Positions 1 to 7,795 of a stretch of 16,207 nucleotides of DNA are shown here, in pieces. Below the pieces are notes generated by a model. That model did no database searches. It was not told the DNA's origin and saw nothing but the letters and a program-made list of their open reading frames with translations. How positions within the stretch are numbered: the first letter of the stretch is position 1; each line of letters begins with the position of its first letter. The stretch is from the IMG/VR virus record IMGVR_UViG_643348545_000010, one strand, 5' to 3'. Both the position numbers and the translations under genes were made by a program. The DNA is from a virus. Its lineage: Duplodnaviria > Heunggongvirae > Uroviricota > Caudoviricetes.

Positions 1-165
1 ATGGCAAAGCCGATCATCACGCTCAATGGCCTAAAAATCGTCATTATGTTGGGAATGCTGGTCATTATTCTCTGCGGTATCCGTTTTGCCGCCGAGATCA
101 TCGTGCCGTTTATTCTCGCATTATTTATTGCTGTTATATATAACTTATTTCACATAACACGTTGA
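1..165 (+). pseudogene. tqsA: 5' fragment of tqsA (AI-2 exporter TqsA/YdgG), interrupted by the island
   Basis: ATG at 1; translation [45 protein letters not shown] matches my memory of the E. coli TqsA N-terminus. After about codon 45 (nt ~136) the sequence turns AT-rich, reads IYNLFHITR and stops at TGA 163-165. The native protein is about 344 aa. Confidence 0.5.
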
Positions 166-211
166 TTTAATTAAATAATTTTCACCGCAAAAAGTGCCAA
201 AAATCGCAAAA

Positions 212-233
212 TGACTACACCAGTGACTACACC
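212..233 (+). repeat. Tandem direct repeat TGACTACACC-AG-TGACTACACC near the left junction; possible integrase arm-type site
   Basis: Two exact 10-mers with 12-bp phasing, about 70-90 bp inside the point where the tqsA frame diverges. Confidence 0.4.
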
Positions 234-249
234 GTTCGGTGCACTGTAT

Positions 250-276
250 GAAACAACGTGGAACAAATAGACACAA
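250..276 (-). promoter_or_regulatory. Phased TTGTTC-type hexamer repeats (minus-strand orientation), left-end copy
   Basis: Plus strand reads GAAACAA-cgtg-GAACAA-atag-ACACAA. A 15-bp core AACAACGTGGAACAA is identical to the site at 7753-7778. Confidence 0.4.
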
Positions 277-344
277 GAAATATACAGGCGGATCATCTTT
301 CCAGGGGGAAGCGCACCAATTCATGAGGGGCGTTAATGTCGATA

Positions 345-747
345 TGGGGATCCCCACCTACCGGAATTTTTTTCCGGTTAAACGTTAATCAGGCTGGTGG
401 GCTTTACCTGTTCGGTAGGTGTTATGATTATCGTAATACCTTTCCCCCAATGGGGTAAAAGCATCAACCGTAACGAAAGTCGTTATGGTTGCCACTGATA
501 CCCCAAATTTGGGTATCACGAGTAAGACCCAAAATCTGGGTGTTACTCTTACTACCCAAACTACGGGTAGTTTCCGTAGTTTCATGGTCGAGTTGCAGAT
601 CTGCAACTCCCCCATTAACCACAGGCGAATTTCCGCCTTCGGTCATTCCTTAATCATCTGCGTAATCATAATGATTATTCAGCAAGCGCAATTTTGCACT
701 TTGCTTAAAGTTCAGCGAGTTACCGCGCCGACTTCCTCAAATTGAGG
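345..747. repeat. Palindrome-dense non-coding block at the distal end of the island
   Basis: TGGGGATCCCCA (345-356); CCGGAA-N5-TTCCGG (361-377) nested inside CACCTACCG...CGGTAGGTG (355-363 / 413-421); CCCCAATGGGG (445-455); three sites of form ACCC-A3-N-T3-GGGT spaced about 27 bp apart (499-516, 527-541, 553-570); direct repeat GTAGTTTC x2 (567-583); GTTGCAGATCTGCAAC (592-607); CCTCAAATTGAGG (735-747). ORFs here have implausible composition. Confidence 0.5.
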
Positions 748-902
748 TTTCCGAAAATATCAGCGGGTTAGCGATTAAGCTGATCATTAATTAAACTGCG
801 AAAATTTCGTAGTTTGTGACTGTCTTTCAGGCAGCTTGTTAACAGTCCTCAGAAGCGAGGGATGTAGCCACCCATTTTTGGTCCGTCGGGAATATCAACC
901 AG

Positions 903-1184
903 TTACCGCCGCAACCGCTCCGGCTTCTTCCAGTGGTACGTTATTTTCTCCTTCTCCCGATACATCTCCACGCGGCGACGGTAGGCCAGCAACTCAAGAA
1001 CTCTGGTTCGTATGTTGCGCATATCCACGCCATTAAGTTCTATACCATCACGGCGCATCACCTCAGCAACAACACGCGCATAGTTTTCGGCTGTCACGCT
1101 GTCCGGCTGCGTGGCCTGTTCGTCAGCCTGCTGGCTGATTCCGGCAACGCGGCGGATTAATCCCGTTATTTCGGCTTCTGTCAT
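903..1184 (-). CDS. Hypothetical protein (93 aa), last gene of the packaging operon
   Basis: ATG at 1184 with GAGGT 8 nt upstream; starts 14 nt after the terL stop. No recognisable motif. Confidence 0.55.
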   Translation of the reverse strand: MTEAEITGLIRRVAGISQQADEQATQPDSVTAENYARVVAEVMRRDGIELNGVDMRNIRTRVLELLAYRRRVEMYREKEKITYHWKKPERLRR

Positions 1185-1197
1185 GCTGCTGACCTCA

Positions 1198-2859
1198 TTA
1201 CACCCCGCTAAATTCTTCCAGTTTCTGGCGGTGGCTGTCGCTTATATCAAAAGCAAAATCCTCATGCTCTGCCTGGAATGTACCAAACGCCATCAGCGCC
1301 GCCACGCTCGGGTCTATCTTGTTCGGTGATTTTTTCTTGTTCGGCTTGATATTGGCGTTCGCGTCACTCTGCATCACGACGTTACTCATCGACCAGGACA
1401 ACACCGGATCGCCACGATGCACAATCACCCTGCGGTTAACAAAAACTTCGAACGATTTCGCCGCCGGACTGAATCTGAGGTAGGTTTGCGGGAACGGCTC
1501 CACCTCAAAACCTGCCCCCTGTAATTGCGTTCTGAGATGCGTGGCGTTCCACGTATCAAAGCCCACCAGCCTGATATTAAATTTCTCCGCGTCCTGCATG
1601 ATGTCATCTCTGATCCGGTCGTAATCAATGCAGTCGCCAGGCGTTGTGCGTATCCAGCCTGCTTTAGCCCACTGACGATAGATGGCGCGGTTTTTATTGG
1701 CGGGGTTCTGTAGCTGAAATTCCGGCAGATAGTGACGGGAAACCAGCATAATGGTTTTACCGACCGGAAAGGCATAGCACACGCTGGAAATATCGCTGGT
1801 TGATGATAAGTCCAGCCCCGCGTAACACTCCTGGCCGTGTAAATCTTCCTCCGTGAACGTTCCGGCACACTCAGCCCATGCGCCGTTACCCATCCACGGG
1901 GTAGCCCCCTGGCACCAGATATTAAATCGCTTTGTCATCATCTCCACCCACTGCGACGGAATACCCCGCGCTTTCTGGATGGTTGAGGCCAGTTTTTCAC
2001 GATCCACGGAAACATCAATATTAGGGTTCGCCTTTATCCACATCGCCGGATCATCAACCTCGTTTTCGTCGTCCAGTTCGTAAATCAGTACAAAAATTGA
2101 ATCGTTGACCTCTTCGCCGTCCAGGATCTGGCAGCAATAATCATAGTGCTGCTTACAGGCTGAAACGACGTTACTGCCTGATGTGGTAATAGCAAATAAC
2201 AGCCCTTCGGGACGTGCGCCCATCCCCAGCTCAAGCGCGGAATAAACGCCGTTATCGGGGTGCAAGTGGTATTCGTCCACGATGGAAAGGCTGGGGTTTG
2301 TTCCCTCGATGGTTGCCGCTTTTGCTGCCAGCGGCTTTAACAGGCTGTTGCTTTTCGGGTGTATCACCTTATGCGCCTGAATATTCACCCGCCTGCGTAA
2401 CGGTCGGGATAAAAGGCACATCTGACGCGCATCATCAAAGACGATCCGCGCCTGGTCACGGCTCACCGCTGCGGTGTAAATATCCTGCTGACCGTTCTCC
2501 ATAATCAGAAACCAGTTAGCCAGAATCGCGGCGGTCGTGGATTTCGCATTTTTGCGCGGCACTTCGATAAAGGCGCTCGTGTATTTGCGCCGTCCGGTGG
2601 CCTTAACCTTAAAGCCGAGGATGCACGCAAAGGCGAACTGCTGCCACGGCTCCAGCTCAATGGGTCTGCCACGCATCGGCCCTTTTACGTGCGGGCACAC
2701 CCTGGAAAAGGCAATAAACCGCTCCACAACCTCACGATCGAACGTGTAAAGGGGGCTTTCAAGGTCCGAAAAGTACCGTTTAACGGCCTGTTTCAGCCGT
2801 TTACAGGCCGGAATTTTGCCCGTTTTTACGTCTTCTGCGTACTTATTCCAGGCGGTCAA
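1198..2859 (-). CDS. terL: Terminase large subunit (Terminase_1 / HK97-like)
   Basis: 553-aa ORF with typical TerL ATPase and nuclease architecture. Apparent TTG start at 2859 with GAGGA 7 nt upstream, overlapping the terS 3' end by 17 nt. Confidence 0.88.
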   Translation of the reverse strand: MTAWNKYAEDVKTGKIPACKRLKQAVKRYFSDLESPLYTFDREVVERFIAFSRVCPHVKGPMRGRPIELEPWQQFAFACILGFKVKATGRRKYTSAFIEVPRKNAKSTTAAILANWFLIMENGQQDIYTAAVSRDQARIVFDDARQMCLLSRPLRRRVNIQAHKVIHPKSNSLLKPLAAKAATIEGTNPSLSIVDEYHLHPDNGVYSALELGMGARPEGLLFAITTSGSNVVSACKQHYDYCCQILDGEEVNDSIFVLIYELDDENEVDDPAMWIKANPNIDVSVDREKLASTIQKARGIPSQWVEMMTKRFNIWCQGATPWMGNGAWAECAGTFTEEDLHGQECYAGLDLSSTSDISSVCYAFPVGKTIMLVSRHYLPEFQLQNPANKNRAIYRQWAKAGWIRTTPGDCIDYDRIRDDIMQDAEKFNIRLVGFDTWNATHLRTQLQGAGFEVEPFPQTYLRFSPAAKSFEVFVNRRVIVHRGDPVLSWSMSNVVMQSDANANIKPNKKKSPNKIDPSVAALMAFGTFQAEHEDFAFDISDSHRQKLEEFSGV

Positions 2860-3199
2860 GCTCGTCCTCTTCTTCTGTTTCCGGTGGATTTTTACGGCGG
2901 CTTATCGGGTCAAAACCGAGCAAGGAGGCCATTTTTATCATCACCCTTTCAGCGTCGGATTTTGCGCTTAATGCGGGGTTTCTGCTCTCGCCGCCCTGAC
3001 TGTTAACAATGCTGAACCCGCGCGCCGCAAGGTCTGCAACGGCTTTCCGGTAAATGGAGTAGTTGACACAATACAGTTCCAGATTGCTCCAGTCGGCGGG
3101 GGTCAGGTCTCCCCGTTCCGCAAGCTGCCGCGATTTTTCCCGCCACTGCTTCACGGCGATGTCATCCAGGTAGGCGGGGGCTTTCGGTGGTCTTGCCAT
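2843..3199 (-). CDS. terS: Terminase small subunit (P27-family-like)
   Basis: 118 aa, MARPPKAPAYLDD...WSNLELYC...GFDPISRRK, typical of P27-family TerS; sits directly upstream of terL. No obvious SD. Confidence 0.75.
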   Translation of the reverse strand: MARPPKAPAYLDDIAVKQWREKSRQLAERGDLTPADWSNLELYCVNYSIYRKAVADLAARGFSIVNSQGGESRNPALSAKSDAERVMIKMASLLGFDPISRRKNPPETEEEDELDRLE

Positions 3200-3490
3200 A
3201 CTTATTTTTTCGCCAGATTATTTTTCAAAAAATTCCCGTGCATAAAAATTTGAGGAGGCGGTCGGTGCCCGGCGGGGTCGGGTTTGTCCTGAAAACGCCC
3301 CCACCCCGTCATACAGCCTCATCAGCGATTGCGAAAACATTCCATAACCTCGCGGTCACGGTCGGTTAATCGCTTCGCTGTGATGCGTTCTGCGCGTCCT
3401 GACGCTTTATCTTTATGCCCTGTTTCCTGTGTCTTCCATGCGTCACGCTGCCTTATCAGTCCACGGATAAGGCGGTTTTGTTCCCGCTCA

Positions 3491-3928
3491 TTAATCAGCG
3501 TCATACATCCAGTTATTGCGGTTAGCGGCCCGTTCTTCCTCTTCACGAAATCCACCTGCGGCACGCTTGCTTTTTGTTGCCGGATCAAGCCATTTCGTTT
3601 TCTGGTTATGGCACGCCTGACACAATGGCTGATGGTTCCATTCGGGCCAGAAGAGAACATCATCACCGCCATCGATGGGGATAATGTGATCCACCACCAC
3701 GGCGGGCGTATATATCCCCTTCTCAAGGCATCGCACGCATAACGGGTTTTTACTCAGATACATGGCGCGGTATTTGTCCCACTGTCTGGAATATCCACGC
3801 GCGCGGCGGTGTCCTCGTCTGGCATCCTCTGCACGCCATGCCGCCCGCCTGTGCTCCTCACACTTGCCGGATTTAACGCGCCTGTTACAGCCTGGTTCTG
3901 TGCATCGTCTTAATGGTTGCCACGGCAT
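3491..3928 (-). CDS. HNH endonuclease (packaging-associated)
   Basis: 145 aa with Cys/His-rich motifs (CxxC...HxxxH...CxxCH); GGGGG SD; position next to terS as in HK97-like cos phages. Confidence 0.8.
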   Translation of the reverse strand: MPWQPLRRCTEPGCNRRVKSGKCEEHRRAAWRAEDARRGHRRARGYSRQWDKYRAMYLSKNPLCVRCLEKGIYTPAVVVDHIIPIDGGDDVLFWPEWNHQPLCQACHNQKTKWLDPATKSKRAAGGFREEEERAANRNNWMYDAD

Positions 3929-4224
3929 CAGTACACCCCCACATCACGGTAAGCCGTCCAGAGTGCGCCTATCGTCATGGGTACGCGTGTTTTTGCGTTA
4001 TCCGCGACAATCTGGCGATTTTCATACAGGTGAGCGATAAACATCATGCAGCCAATCTTTATGGCTGGCGTGAACTCCAGCCCGTCATCAAAGCGCCTGC
4101 CTATGTGTATCTGGCACGCCTCAAGCGATGCGGCAATGTATCCGCTGATTAACTGGTCTTCATCGTCGCCATCGATGCGGCAATGGAGTTTCACTTCTTC
4201 CAGGGTGATAAGTTCTTCTGTCAT
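3928..4224 (-). CDS. Head-tail connector protein (gp6-like)
   Basis: 98 aa, MTEELITLEEVKLHCRID..., typical N-terminus of gp6-like connector proteins; stop overlaps the HNH start. Confidence 0.7.
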   Translation of the reverse strand: MTEELITLEEVKLHCRIDGDDEDQLISGYIAASLEACQIHIGRRFDDGLEFTPAIKIGCMMFIAHLYENRQIVADNAKTRVPMTIGALWTAYRDVGVY

Positions 4225-4559
4225 TTTTCCGCGCCCTCACGACAAAGAATTTCAAGGCGTGTCCTGGCGGCATCCGGCAGCGGCTGCCCGATGATATTCA
4301 GTACACGCCCCGCCAGCGGCCCCGTACTGACCTTTATCCGGCTGGTGGCGTTGATGTCCTTCCGGTACCGTATCCAGATCCTTACGGTACCAATCGCCAG
4401 CTCTGCGCCCGATGAAATGGCCTCCTTGCTGCTGACCATGTTCACGCTTGCCCAGAGTGTGTGACCGTCCTCCCACGTTTCGAGTATTTCGCCGGTTATA
4501 TCCCTGGTCTGTTTCAGGGTCTGAATCGTTATCCTGTCACGCAGTCGCCCTATGTTCAT
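4221..4559 (-). CDS. Head-tail adaptor / head closure protein
   Basis: Internal ATG at 4559 (MNIGRLRDRITIQ...) preceded by GGGAGAA; ATGA overlap with the portal stop and with the downstream connector start. Confidence 0.7.
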   Translation of the reverse strand: MNIGRLRDRITIQTLKQTRDITGEILETWEDGHTLWASVNMVSSKEAISSGAELAIGTVRIWIRYRKDINATSRIKVSTGPLAGRVLNIIGQPLPDAARTRLEILCREGAEK

Positions 4560-5767
4560 TCCGGTTTTTCTCCCTCGCTGATTTTTACTTCCTGTTTCCA
4601 TGCCTGGCTGAACTCATCACCACCATCACGCGGTGACAGACCTTCACGTTCGCGGGCTTCGTTCGGACACATAACGCCGGATTTGATGCCGCGCTCATAG
4701 GTGGCAAAGCGTTCGCCAGGTGTGGCCCGTAACAGGTCCGCGCTGTCAAACTCCACCTGATACCGGATACCAGGTACAGGCGAGGCCACCAGCAGGGCGT
4801 TTTTTATCTGCTGCTCAAAGTTCGCCAGCCACGGGCGCATCGTCATGGTGAGAAATGCGCGGCTTGCCTCGCTGAAATTGCTGTAGGTGCTGTTGCTGTA
4901 TTCCTGCAAAAAAATCGGCGAGACGTTGAACATTCGGGCGATGTCTTCAATGGTGAAGCGACGGGAGGCCAGCCATTCAGCATCCTGATTACTCATGCCC
5001 AGCTGCTGATAGCTCATACCCCCTTCAAGGATGGGCGTTTTTCCGGCATTTCTGGCCCCTTTGTAGCGTTCCAGTGCGGCTAATGCCTGTTTGCCCTTCA
5101 CGCCGTCCAGCCATTCGCCTGACGTGATAACCCCTGCCGCCATCATGCCATCACGCATCACGCTCGCGCCGTGGCGTTGTTGGGCCAGCCCAAGCCCCAG
5201 CGATTCGCGGCAGATGGTTACAGGTGAGCGCCCCATAAAACCGTCATCCGTGGAGTAACGAAGGTGGAGAACCTCCCACGGTAAATAGTTGCGGGTGTTT
5301 CCGGTGTAGGCGTCAGTGATGCAGTAGCGCCAGTTATGCTCACCTGTCTGCTCAACGTTCACCGACTGCGGCGGGTAAGGATGCAAAGCGACCGGAAAAC
5401 CATCACGCCCCCACTGAATCACCGCATAAGCATTACCGTTTAACAGGCAGTGGCGGATCATCATTCGCTTAAACTGGTAGGGGGTCTGCCATGCGTTCGG
5501 GCGCTCGTTGAGGATGTGATCGACCGGATGAGAATCAAGCCACTCTCGGGCCTCCTTCCCCTTCTCATTGCGTACCAGGTACAGGTAACACGGCATGGTA
5601 GCCACCGCCTCAGAGATGACCGTGACGGCGTTCATGACGGCGGGCAGTGATTCCGCTGTCCCCGATGATACGTACTCACCCGCCCCCGTGTTCGATGTGC
5701 CAGCCAGCGCCATAAACTCATCAAGCGTCATGCTGCGCTGCTCTTTTTTTCTTCTGAAAGGCCACAT
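4556..5767 (-). CDS. Portal protein, HK97 family
   Basis: 403 aa with characteristic portal length and composition; GGGGG SD 7 nt upstream; start 2 nt after the protease stop. Confidence 0.88.
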   Translation of the reverse strand: MWPFRRKKEQRSMTLDEFMALAGTSNTGAGEYVSSGTAESLPAVMNAVTVISEAVATMPCYLYLVRNEKGKEAREWLDSHPVDHILNERPNAWQTPYQFKRMMIRHCLLNGNAYAVIQWGRDGFPVALHPYPPQSVNVEQTGEHNWRYCITDAYTGNTRNYLPWEVLHLRYSTDDGFMGRSPVTICRESLGLGLAQQRHGASVMRDGMMAAGVITSGEWLDGVKGKQALAALERYKGARNAGKTPILEGGMSYQQLGMSNQDAEWLASRRFTIEDIARMFNVSPIFLQEYSNSTYSNFSEASRAFLTMTMRPWLANFEQQIKNALLVASPVPGIRYQVEFDSADLLRATPGERFATYERGIKSGVMCPNEAREREGLSPRDGGDEFSQAWKQEVKISEGEKPE

Positions 5768-5768
5768 A

Positions 5769-6341
5769 TCACACCCCCGCTAAATCCGCCCACCAGCGGC
5801 GATTATCCGCACGCGGCATTTTTTCGGGGTGCTGCTCATACAGGGAACGGCGGGCCAGCTCCACGCCGGAATCGGGGTAAGCCGGTACCGATGTAACGGT
5901 AATTTCGTACAGTTCCGCCACCAGCACGGTGCGCACGCATGGATCTGTTGTGGTATCCCATACATCCTTACGGGAGCGAAAGCCAAAGCTCATCCCCGAG
6001 ATGTCCCCACGCTTAACCAGTTCGATAACGTCGCGCCCTGTACTGGTATCCGGTGGGGTCAGTTCAAAGCGTAACCCTGTTTCGTCCTCTTCCAGTTTCA
6101 GCGTGCCGGAACGGGTGCGCCCCAGTAACATGCTGTGGTCATGCTCATACAGGCCGCGAACGTCATTACCCGCCGCAAGCCATTCAGTAAACGCCCCCCG
6201 CTGGAATTTTTCGTAAAACTCACCCCATAACAGTTCTGAAAGCTTATCCCAGCGAACAACGTAGCCCGTCAGCGTACCGGCTCCGCTGGTGGTGATTTCC
6301 GATGACCGGATTTCCATACTCTTCATAATTTTTTCACCCAT
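5769..6341 (-). CDS. Prohead maturation protease, HK97 family (S78-like)
   Basis: 190 aa, ...GYVVRWDKLSE...LYEHD...GDISGMSFGF... resembles HK97 prohead protease. The true start may be the internal ATG at 6326. Confidence 0.8.
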   Translation of the reverse strand: MGEKIMKSMEIRSSEITTSGAGTLTGYVVRWDKLSELLWGEFYEKFQRGAFTEWLAAGNDVRGLYEHDHSMLLGRTRSGTLKLEEDETGLRFELTPPDTSTGRDVIELVKRGDISGMSFGFRSRKDVWDTTTDPCVRTVLVAELYEITVTSVPAYPDSGVELARRSLYEQHPEKMPRADNRRWWADLAGV

Positions 6342-6351
6342 AAAACACTAA

Positions 6352-6369
6352 AGGGGCTTTTAAGCCCCT
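6352..6369 (-). terminator. Hairpin between capsid and protease genes; likely attenuator
   Basis: Perfect stem AGGGGCTT / AAGCCCCT followed on the minus strand by a U-rich tract (UUAGUGUUUUAU). Confidence 0.45.
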
Positions 6370-6380
6370 TCTGTATGCTG

Positions 6381-7538
6381 TTAATCGTCGTCCTGTGGCA
6401 GTTCCAGAATCTTGATCGCGTTCGAATCCACCACGCCACCGCCTAAATATTTCTGCGTGAAAATTTTGATGAAGCCCGGCTCTGTGAGGTTGTCCGGTCT
6501 GGTGCGAACACCTGTTTCGTGATCAACAATGTAGTAACCGCGTTTGAAGTCACCCAGGGCAATAACGTTATCAGGCATAAACTCCAGATATTCGACCGGA
6601 AGGCCCAGCAACGTATCAGGATCACCCGCCTGTAAACGGTCGCGCCAGATGTAATCACCGTTCGCGTTCTTCACCTTCTGAAGTTTTGCCGCCGTCGTGG
6701 AGTTAACCACCCAGACCGCGTTTTTGCGGTATTTTTTACGTAATGCAAATTTCAGGTCGATCAGCGGGTCCGCAGATGTCCACGCCAGAGATTCGGAAGG
6801 TTTAATTACCTGCAACGTACCAAAATCACGCTCTTTGTCGTTCTTCTCTGCACGGGGTACGGATAAAAAGCCTTTTGCTTTTTTGTCACCGTCGCCCACA
6901 ACCAGATCGCTTTCTTCGGTTTCCGTGAAGGTGTCGCCAATCTCGCCCGTCAGCCATGAAAGGATGTCCACATCGGAAAAATCCACGATTTCCTGTGTGG
7001 TGCGCGGGTACGCATAGACCGGATACAGCTTAATGCTCACCTCGTTAATCTGCGGGGTGCTGGTCTGTTCGCGTGCCTTACCCTCTTCACCGTGGTTAAC
7101 GGTCGCACCGCCAGCGGAAACAAGCTGCTTAAACTCGTTGCTGCTGATTTTCTTCACGGTACAGATGCGGCGCATGGTGGATTCATCCGCCAGCATTCGC
7201 ATGATTTCGGTGTTCAGTTCGGGGATAACGGTATAACCACCATCAGCGGGAACGCCTGTACTTAATGCGCGGGTTTCACCCGTCAGAATGTAGTTTCGTA
7301 GTTCTGCGGGGTCAGTGGTCTGACTGCTTTTACCTGGCTTGCTGCGCTCTTCGTCTGCAATGGCTTCAAGGCGGGAAATGTCTTTATCGAGGGATTCAGC
7401 TTTAGCGCGTAATTCGTCAAATTTTGCGCCCTCAGCATCGTTAAGACTGCGGTTTTCTTTTTCAGCGTTCTCCAGCATGTCGCGCATCTGATTTTTAATG
7501 GCGGTTTTCTGCTGGCGCAATTCGATTATTCTCGGCAT
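6381..7538 (-). CDS. Major capsid protein, HK97 fold
   Basis: Start taken at ATG 7538 (MPRIIELRQQ...), giving a coiled-coil N-terminal domain typical of HK97-family capsids. The ORF track extends to 7586, but that extension is the terminator hairpin. Confidence 0.88.
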   Translation of the reverse strand: MPRIIELRQQKTAIKNQMRDMLENAEKENRSLNDAEGAKFDELRAKAESLDKDISRLEAIADEERSKPGKSSQTTDPAELRNYILTGETRALSTGVPADGGYTVIPELNTEIMRMLADESTMRRICTVKKISSNEFKQLVSAGGATVNHGEEGKAREQTSTPQINEVSIKLYPVYAYPRTTQEIVDFSDVDILSWLTGEIGDTFTETEESDLVVGDGDKKAKGFLSVPRAEKNDKERDFGTLQVIKPSESLAWTSADPLIDLKFALRKKYRKNAVWVVNSTTAAKLQKVKNANGDYIWRDRLQAGDPDTLLGLPVEYLEFMPDNVIALGDFKRGYYIVDHETGVRTRPDNLTEPGFIKIFTQKYLGGGVVDSNAIKILELPQDDD

Positions 7539-7575
7539 AAAAAAAGTCCTGGGGTTAAGTAAGGAACTCCAGGAC
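7539..7575 (-). terminator. Intrinsic-terminator-like hairpin plus U7 immediately 5' of the capsid start codon
   Basis: Minus strand: GTCCTGG-(16-nt loop)-CCAGGAC-UUUUUUU-AUG. The 7-bp stem is perfect, 7 U follow, and there are 0 nt between the U-run and the ATG. No SD. Confidence 0.5.
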
Positions 7576-7627
7576 GCGGCAAACACTCAACCGTTTTTCA
7601 TAAGGAAATCAGCAATCGCACCGTTCG

Positions 7628-7675
7628 TTTTCCCGCCTGGTAATGAATATTGGCGAGCACATTAACAGGCGGGAA
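7628..7675. promoter_or_regulatory. 17-bp inverted repeat (16/17 match) with 14-bp spacer in the packaging-operon leader
   Basis: TTTCCCGCCTGTTAATG ... CATTACCAGGCGGGAAA on the minus strand, about 100 bp upstream of the capsid start. Confidence 0.45.
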
Positions 7676-7752
7676 AGTGGCCCCAGCGTCCTGGCACCAC
7701 GGGCGAGAATAATCATGATTCAGTTCGGGTAAAATATGCCGATCCGCTCAGT

Positions 7753-7778
7753 GAACAACGTGGAACAACCACGAACAA
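7753..7778 (-). promoter_or_regulatory. Three phased hexamers (GAACAA on plus = TTGTTC on minus) with 10-bp periodicity upstream of the packaging operon
   Basis: GAACAA-cgtg-GAACAA-ccac-GAACAA; same motif family as 250-276 and 14898-14943. Confidence 0.45.
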
Positions 7779-7795
7779 ATAATTTACAAAAAATA

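Follow-up and report, generated by a model that had tools for sequence, protein, structure and literature searches.

The closest described counterparts of the DNA considered here are the BIME-1/RIB (or RIP) elements of Escherichia coli, bacterial interspersed mosaic elements that sit at the 3' ends of transcription units and are dispersed over the chromosome in tens to hundreds of copies. They reportedly consist of repetitive extragenic palindromic (REP) units, or PU, together with a site for integration host factor (IHF), as Boccard and Prentki and Oppenheim et al. are said to have described in 1993. The 16.2-kb stretch of IMGVR_UViG_643348545_000010 analysed here (hereafter the window) carries a palindrome-dense block at positions 345-747, which forms the central part of a non-coding tail (~357-905) downstream of the late operon of a capsid-forming phage-inducible chromosomal island (cf-PICI). 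Like BIME-1/RIB elements, this tail is extragenic, lies at the 3' end of a transcription unit (in each island that was inspected, it comes immediately after the last late-operon gene) and is a mosaic of imperfect palindromes with IHF-consensus sites, whose copy number and arrangement vary and whose palindrome arms are kept complementary. Unlike them, it has shorter stems (5-8 bp), adds Chi sites and an invariant module (module C, see below), and has units confined to 1-4 places per genome instead of hundreds genome-wide. The REP/PU consensus has no match in the window, even with up to three mismatches allowed. Because both the REP consensus and genome-wide dispersal are missing, the tail is, as far as this analogy goes, a separate satellite-specific family akin to BIME-1/RIB and not a member of it.

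PICIs and cf-PICIs are major gene-transfer vehicles in E. coli, and in the literature that we found their non-coding DNA has been examined for att, ori and cos only; our searches returned no paper describing the tail region and no report of Chi or IHF in PICIs. The best explanation for the block is that it is not one site, and that the tail to which it belongs has been assembled from short modules exchanged by recombination among E. coli PICIs. The reading that we favour, tentatively, is that the late operon has, at its 3' end, an extragenic array specific to satellites and resembling BIME/RIB elements, and that the block is part of it. This is a descriptive advance, not a new mechanism: PICI tails are a distinct, satellite-specific extragenic repeat DNA that is very rich in hairpins, IHF-consensus boxes and Chi sites, and a 123-bp cassette is almost unchanged across satellites whose modules for packaging, replication and integration differ. 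A tail that favours RecBCD/Chi-dependent survival and recombination, should this be its effect, would partly account for how mosaic satellites have evolved, and could matter for the engineering of PICIs into delivery vehicles.

Mosaic structure of the tail

The density of palindromes in the block, pointed out in a preliminary description of this DNA, is confirmed. At least eight palindromes or inverted repeats, some of them nested, had been counted, and all those named are present after small corrections of coordinates: three ACCC-type sites thought to be about 27 bp apart are found at 500-514, 527-541 and 554-568, with a spacing of exactly 27 bp, and a 16-bp perfect palindrome (GTTGCAGATCTGCAAC, 592-607) is the core of a 20-bp perfect one (GAGTTGCAGATCTGCAACTC, 590-609). 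Seven perfect stems of at least 6 bp are found (360-378, 471-485, 496-518, 551-571, 558-582, 590-609 and 663-677), together with near-perfect hairpins at 353-401, 417-441, 451-505, 520-548, 624-637, 686-699 and 735-747. The minimum free energy of the block is -154.2 kcal/mol on the + strand and -162.1 kcal/mol on the - strand, to be compared with means of -100.6 and -107.6 for dinucleotide shuffles (z = -9.65 and -10.77, respectively), 0/100 of which are as good. In a 200-nt sliding scan of the whole window, scored against mononucleotide shuffles, the block stands out as the most structured part, with segment 401-600 first in rank and 501-700 third, the only comparable segment being the replication origin at 9201-9400.

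The block was also correctly placed, downstream of the last operon gene and inside the junction. It lies between that gene, which encodes 93 aa and ends at 903, and the att arm with the island/host junction at ~150-156, where homology with other islands begins. Relatives were searched for in 5,426 complete E. coli genomes and in IMG/VR (loci are designated L), and the sequence downstream of the 93-aa gene at all fetched loci yielded 51 non-redundant tails, amounting to 42.4 kb. A contig search with the 93-aa protein gave one locus, and the comparison is one within E. coli, distant relatives from elsewhere lying outside it. Throughout this set, the tail is a mosaic of modules that are found separately and assort independently. 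In the window, its features and those immediately around it are as follows (strand given where one applies).

155-167, - strand: IHF-consensus box AATCAACGTGTTA, a match to WATCARNNNNTTR, beside the island/host junction; part of the att arm, outside the block
199-356: att-arm module, defined by a repeat family and cross-island homology, with two arm-type direct repeats TGACTACACC at 212-233 and a terminal palindrome GGGGATCCCC at 346-355
357-493: module B, defined by folding and stems, with hairpin 353-401 enclosing ACCGGAA-T5-TTCCGGT (360-378), hairpin 417-441, and the 5' arm and inner stem (466-490) of the long hairpin 451-505
393-400, + strand: Chi site GCTGGTGG within module B, kept in nearly all variants
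492-614: module C, a 123-bp cassette known from 22 variants, with hairpins H1 (496-518), H2 (520-548), H3 (551-571, alternative 558-582) and H4 (590-609)
500-514: first ACCC-N7-GGGT site, ACCCCAAATTTGGGT
527-541: second ACCC-N7-GGGT site, ACCCAAAATCTGGGT
554-568: third ACCC-N7-GGGT site, ACCCAAACTACGGGT
618-643: module D, a hairpin ACC..GGCGAATTTCCGCC..GGT found by folding
648-726: long repeat unit, with TTAATCATCTGCG, hairpin 663-677, TTCAG, hairpin 686-699 and a degenerate IHF-like box GTTCAGCGAGTTA at 710-722
728-773: short repeat unit, with CCGACTT, hairpin CCTCA-AAT-TGAGG at 735-747, TTTCCGAAAA and an IHF-consensus box TATCAGCGGGTTA at 758-770
793-815: hairpin AAACTGCGAAA-A-TTTCGTAGTTT found by stem search, in the same tail but outside the block
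868-905: proximal unit, with a weak hairpin ACCCATTTTTGG and an IHF-consensus box TATCAACCAGTTA at 893-905, which overlaps the stop codon of the 93-aa gene
903-1184, - strand: last late-operon gene, 93 aa, matching family phrog_1561, with no predicted function

Loci L160-L162 match the window over 199-356 alone (96-97%) and then diverge, module B occurs without module C in a classical PICI beside phoQ (L003), and hairpins related to module D (CCGAAGGCGGAATTCCGCCCTCGG) lie upstream of module C in other islands. From ~648, the tail is made of long (~80-85 bp) and short (~48 bp) repeat units, each consisting of a short hairpin and an IHF-consensus box, which are tandemly amplified with a copy number that differs among islands (L010, L122 and L054); the long unit is found in tandem elsewhere, as repeated matches to 648-726 in L010, L026, L054, L070 and L078. 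The core at ~445-735 is 98-99% identical in collinear relatives, where the flanks differ by 15-25%, and window 150-900 matches islands in O157:H7, O55:H7, O26 and other strains at 99.9-100%. The block could have turned out to be missing from related islands, as the preliminary description had allowed; it is conserved in them, as a mosaic.

The block is non-coding. Its open reading frames (ORFs) had been judged not to be protein-like, and this judgement holds: an 86-aa ORF at 485-745 has no match in Pfam, PHROG or NCBIfam, module C has an excess of synonymous changes in no frame, and indels between relatives are not multiples of three (a 7-nt indel in 355-360 being an example). The absence of a family match and of a coding substitution pattern, together with these indels, rules out a protein-coding reading.

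A structured RNA had been suggested too, and it is improbable that the block encodes one or more non-coding RNAs, either as an independent small RNA or as a processed fragment of a 3' untranslated region, of which the hairpin chain would be the product. The extreme folding z-scores on both strands are what such a proposal would lead one to expect, and it can further draw on the near-invariance of the core between islands with divergent flanks, on a promoter-like site at 268-296 (+) and on strand differences in folding. The - strand (mRNA sense) folds better by 4.5-21 kcal/mol, typically 9-17, in module C-containing 300-nt tails, values that reflect a shared module and are not independent, and the + strand folds better in 301-600. 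However, Rfam gives no match to the block at the gathering threshold and, for window 1-1300 at E <=10, nothing beyond chance-level matches; no convincing intrinsic terminator is predicted on either strand of 1-1300, and no promoter/terminator pair flanks the block. The promoter-like site, the only one and a weak one, has been lost in part from L026 and L070, two loci that retain the core. Strand preference is mixed, individual hairpins of the block favouring different strands, the reshuffling of modules between unrelated flanks implies that there are no constant transcript boundaries, and covariation within module C is minimal. Among other RNA candidates, a search of the block for tRNA or tmRNA found none, and a CsrB-like sponge was ruled out by the absence of GGA motifs from loops. 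A phage database gave no match to the block.

Hairpins, IHF-consensus boxes and Chi sites

Three DNA signals are joined in the tail: hairpin units whose pairing is preserved, IHF-consensus boxes on many of these units, and Chi sites. In a repeat unit, a 5-6-bp stem closed by a 3-nt loop is separated by ~10 nt of TTTCCGAAAA-like spacer from an IHF-consensus box WATCARNNNNTTR. Across 67 distinct units, stem sequences are diverse (CCTCA, TCCCCC, TCCACAG, CAGCC, CCTGC, TTCGCC and others), and a perfect stem of at least 5 bp is seen in 57%, versus 13% of shuffles. Compensatory double changes are found among paralogues at 5/6 stem pairs, with a covariation score (0.468, versus 0.133 in shuffles) that was reached by 0/500 shuffles. 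Strong folding extends to tails devoid of module C, where the 300 nt that follow the 93-aa gene have a median z of -4.5 (28/34 being below -3), the window-wide median being -1.7. These hairpin data support selection, or template-switch correction, for complementary arms, with hairpins that may act as RNA or as DNA.

The IHF consensus occurs 79 times in + orientation and 19 times in - orientation in the 51 tails, that is, 98 times versus 1.3 expected per strand (~2.6 in total); in the 15.3 kb of window 906-16207, it occurs 1 + 1 times. The WATCARNNNNTTR boxes joined to hairpin units are ~60-fold enriched in PICI tails, where IHF sites are predicted from their consensus. For Chi, 76 copies were counted in the tails versus 1.3 expected, with at least one copy in 47/51 tails and a density of one per 558 nt. 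The whole window has 14 copies (GCTGGTGG) versus 0.47 expected from shuffles, or about one per 1.2 kb, in both orientations.

Chi sites in the window, both strands: 393, 1563, 4341, 4786, 5790, 5918, 6285, 8504, 8838, 10136, 10397, 13428, 14167 and 15328

Three of them belong to an extended 15-18-nt Chi-containing repeat, ATCAGGCTGGTGGGC(TTT), at 388-405 (+), 1558-1575 (-) and 14165-14179 (-), which lies once in the non-coding tail and twice within unrelated genes, with a flanking identity that exceeds what Chi requires. As for the proposal that the block holds sites for host factors, it is partly supported: the conserved Chi site at 393-400 is inside the block, and IHF-consensus boxes are part of repeat units that begin within it, but the perfect boxes, at 758-770 and 893-905, are just outside. 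The repeat units were found at 1-4 places in 1025/5426 E. coli genomes (19%), and the places whose annotation was inspected for this part of the tail (n=3) were all PICI tails; the modules and units are satellite-specific in these data and not a genome-wide repeat.

How could these signals work in a satellite-specific array? Since no intrinsic terminator is predicted, transcription of the late (packaging) operon would run on into the tail, which would form its untranslated 3' end. There, (i) the hairpin chain would shield the mRNA from degradation by 3' exonucleases and reduce read-through in the direction of att and int, or of host genes. On DNA, (ii) IHF, if it binds the predicted boxes, would bend the tail, and (iii) Chi sites, if they are active, would halt RecBCD on satellite DNA in linear or rolling-circle form and bring about the loading of RecA, an action that would also drive the observed shuffling of modules. 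These steps, and any fitness effect, are predictions made from sequence.

Several findings weigh against this scheme and, more generally, against our favoured reading. The hairpins have no U-tracts and are not predicted to terminate transcription. They show no strand bias either, as judged from wobble pairs (8 G.T versus 10 A.C) and from folding energies (mean E(+) minus E(-) of -0.3 +/- 2.1 kcal/mol), which is contrary to a purely RNA-level role and fits DNA-level palindromes, or quasi-palindrome correction without selection. The consensus from which IHF binding is predicted is degenerate, and the boxes are paralogous copies whose count overstates the independent evidence; the perfect ones being outside the block, 345-747 contains a single, degenerate copy (710-722). 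Chi sites occur in both orientations (41 versus 35), which offers no simple geometry for end protection. Finally, module C is conserved as primary sequence, at 95% column identity, a constancy for which a generic hairpin role has no need. Nearly invariant yet dispensable, this module (492-614) is unaccounted for by the array model beyond being another palindromic cassette.

The lack of strand bias and the dispensability of modules would also be compatible with functionless recombination scars, namely the 93-aa gene's 3' end duplicated in tandem along with the downstream hairpin, att-arm fragments and swapped satellite cassettes, the palindromes of which would be kept by template-switch (quasi-palindrome) correction and not by selection. 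Several features have the look of such debris: units include a copy of the last codons of the gene (GTTACCGCGCC versus GTTACCGCCGC) and their tandem number differs by island, an IHF box of the same type lies beside a tRNA-type att core in other islands, and tails of the L061 type resemble a deletion product of the two-copy arrangement in L023. We nevertheless give this possibility little weight. Neutral DNA is unlikely to be 98-99% identical beside flanks that diverge by 15-25%, a pattern that recent spread could mimic, and hairpins, IHF boxes and Chi are enriched in nearly all tails, those of unrelated sequence included, which points to selection on content.

Module C

Of the conservation and covariation for which the preliminary description called, the former is plain, the block being kept among related islands, and the latter is minimal within module C. 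Its 22 distinct variants are nearly invariant (95% mean column identity), most pairs never vary, and covariation is restricted to H1, where it concerns two pairs and six cells. The borders of the module are sharp and its orientation relative to the 93-aa gene is constant; elsewhere it usually adjoins that gene directly, and it is sometimes duplicated. It is shared by satellites that differ in packaging, replication and integration modules: the insertion sites concerned are tqsA, a site downstream of fis and a site beside a 178-aa ORF at the left end of L023, with arm repeats that differ, and the islands carrying module C include classical PICIs devoid of both TerL and HNH, of which one had been deposited as a 10.8-kb circular 'plasmid'. 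The latter (L179, NZ_CP148328.1; 10.79 kb, from E. coli) is an excised classical PICI with genes for an integrase, AlpA, a primase, a protease-capsid fusion, a DUF1441 protein and the 93-aa protein, and no TerL. It is one of six matching records in a plasmid database, the other two that were inspected being misfiled chromosomes (1.4 and 4.9 Mb). Module C is not tied to a variant of the 93-aa protein, as identical proteins are found with and without it.

Such constancy would be expected of a sequence-specific protein-binding platform, in which three 15-bp ACCC-N7-GGGT operators and the 20-bp palindrome would be bound by a dimeric protein (from the host, the helper phage or the satellite) that acts in a step common to all E. 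coli PICI types. The stems of H2-H4 are almost constant across the 22 variants when the adjacent 93-aa gene has only 77-85% DNA identity, the ACCC/GGGT half-sites are repeated seven times with orientations that alternate, the borders of the cassette are sharp and it always faces the gene in the same way, and the replication origin, which is a true array of protein sites, folds with a similar z-score. We still consider such a platform rather unlikely. Module C is dispensable, being absent from many islands with the same packaging genes and accompanied or not by the identical 93-aa protein. Moreover, symmetric compensatory changes in H1 (T-A to C-G; GATCCCC/GGGGATC) keep pairing and not the half-site, the centre of H1 varies freely (CAAATTT, TTTATTT or TATATTT), no candidate binding protein co-varies with the module and no adjacent promoter is predicted.

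Particular sites and structures were considered as well. An H-type pseudoknot formed by H3 and H3b (ACTACCC-AAACTAC-GGGTAGT-TTCC-GTAGTTT) is sterically implausible, with loop lengths of zero, and the two were treated as alternative hairpins. The palindrome at 590-609 has what we take to be a likeness to a CytR- or LacI-like operator, which was tried and rejected. Hairpin 663-677, in the long repeat unit, presumably resembles a Fur box, and is unlikely to be a fixed operator, its arms changing by compensation in relatives.

Module C could also be a dedicated portable cis-element of all E. coli PICI lineages, whatever their packaging strategy, a proposal that we hold to be unlikely and that comes in two versions. 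It might be a platform that binds a host or helper factor needed in the satellite life cycle or, alternatively, a structure-specific recognition/recombination site for the exchange of tail cassettes. The latter version is suggested by the two-copy clusters, whose representatives (3/3; the contigs of L023, L038 and L060) have an origin-like cassette placed precisely between their direct copies of module C. This arrangement could result from cassette exchange via module C, or from simple unequal crossing-over. In the cassette, GCGGGTTAT iterons (three direct, three inverted) surround an AT-rich stretch carrying an IHF box; the cassette is found at L023:1061-1380 and at L141:5700-5900, in L060 and L133, and in L161 and L177 without module C. 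In L011, two copies of module C are ~430 bp apart, the intervening sequence being outside the comparison. In most islands (tails of the L061 type, e.g. L002:9120-9135), module C is directly followed by a Chi site of the gene strand, CACCCACCAGCC, and is therefore often bracketed by Chi. The window differs from these tails in having CCCCCATTAACC in place of that Chi.

Packaging, replication, partition and integration

The remaining functions that had been proposed for the block did not survive comparison. The modules are present regardless of terminase, replicon and integration site, and therefore cos, a secondary origin or an att arm is not supported; even taken jointly, an att arm, a cos, an origin and a partition site have a very low probability.

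A packaging signal (cos, pac or TerS site), a second origin or a partition site would form a highly improbable explanation for the block, despite two points in its favour, namely that dense inverted repeats are typical of such sites and that the tails of some relatives hold the iteron-bearing, AT-rich origin-like cassette flanked by two copies of module C. Terminase recognition is contradicted by islands that have 95-98% identical HNH-TerS-TerL and lack module C (L103-L112 and L121-L123), by same-TerL relatives that seem to be embedded in a prophage terL gene and lack the 93-aa gene and the whole tail, and by the presence of module C in classical PICIs without TerL (L179). The module is also found in classical PICIs that use a lambda-type cosN, and lambda cosN is not in the block; in the classical PICI L003, this cosN lies on the opposite side of the 93-aa gene.

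The hypothesis of a partition site is countered by the absence of annotated par genes and by inverted repeats that are not copies of one sequence. The centromere sopC of F is composed of tandem 43-bp repeats, with one inverted repeat each and the same sequence throughout, and a ParB-type protein is encoded nearby. The tail is similar in its tandem units, each with a short inverted repeat, but its stems differ from unit to unit and there are no par genes. Iteron origins and P4 crr have in common with the block arrays of inverted short repeats and very low folding energies, whereas the block shares no island iteron and co-occurs with different iteron families. The origin of this island, just downstream of the primase gene, has at least eight direct and inverted GGGTAGAGGGC iterons, which are found at 9190-9430 only and are absent from the block, and no shared 10-mers link block and origin; module C co-occurs in L002 with P4-type TGTTCACC iterons (L002:17780-18010).

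Also highly improbable is a distal attP arm with sites for Int, excisionase/AlpA and IHF that would serve excision and integration. The junction is close, with IHF boxes and arm-type repeats nearby, and the layout of a lambda-type P' arm (core, IHF H' site and Int arm repeats) is indeed reproduced in 150-270 by the junction, the IHF box at 155-167 and the repeats at 212-233. But these features, as well as 208-266, which resembles (81%) the arm on the int side of this island in L001, are all confined to 150-270. The arm ends near 356; the block starts ~80 bp beyond its final feature, and the two are exchanged independently. There are no arm repeats in 357-747, which is replaced by unrelated sequence in islands that share 199-356, and module C accompanies different arm repeats and integration sites.

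The search for the cos of cf-PICIs is thereby narrowed: the site is very probably not in this block, and the HNH-terS interval is, by elimination, the candidate region. In that interval, 3200-3322 (-), between the small ORF that follows HNH and terS, has a G-rich stretch followed by CCTCCTCAAATTTTTATGCACGGGAATTTTTTGAAAAATAATC, and lies within continuous homology in every relative that shares the terminase. Our literature search found no mapped cos position for cf-PICIs. The better known lambda cos (cosQ-cosN-cosB and an IHF site) and the cos sites of classical E. coli PICIs (PMC6092414, PMC6739421, PMC9026076) resemble the block in being non-coding, near packaging genes and possibly involving IHF; the block differs in having no cosN-like sequence and in being independent of terminase type.

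The relatives embedded in a helper are exemplified by L141:4001-9659, where, behind a satellite with a 93% identical TerL, there is a fragment with the C-terminal nuclease of TerL, then a portal and a prohead protease, which suggests a satellite inserted inside a prophage terL gene, a configuration that has been described (PMC10111431). The same blast pattern, with ORFs unchecked, is seen in L144, L146, L149, L153, L163, L166, L168-L170, L172 and L176. Loci of the L141 type are all without the 93-aa gene and the tail.

The first part of the window is the 5' end of tqsA, in which the EcCIEDL933-like cf-PICI is inserted, and the gene organisation of the island is that published for EcCIEDL933. 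All its genes are on the - strand, except one short + strand ORF (YlcI/YnfO family) in the regulatory region. The island encodes an integrase, an AlpA-like regulator, a C4-type antisense RNA, an Icd-like protein, a primase, SSB, PerC, a major capsid protein, a protease, a portal, head-tail adaptors, HNH, a P27-type TerS, TerL and the terminal 93-aa protein. In every PICI type examined, capsid-forming or classical, the gene for the latter adjoins the tail. The protein is 80-100% identical among aligned examples, is encoded at the terminal position of the late operon, and has an all-helical AlphaFold model with a pLDDT of 58.5, too low for a fold search. In the study of EcCIEDL933, loss of one hypothetical gene of the packaging module, '1792', which may or may not be the 93-aa gene, severely lowered transfer. 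Elsewhere in the island, the C4-type antisense RNA and its a1/b1 target, at 12309-12396 (-) and 12464-12513 (-) (Rfam RF01695 and RF03163), adjoin the Icd-like gene and make up a P1/P4-style immunity module of this PICI.

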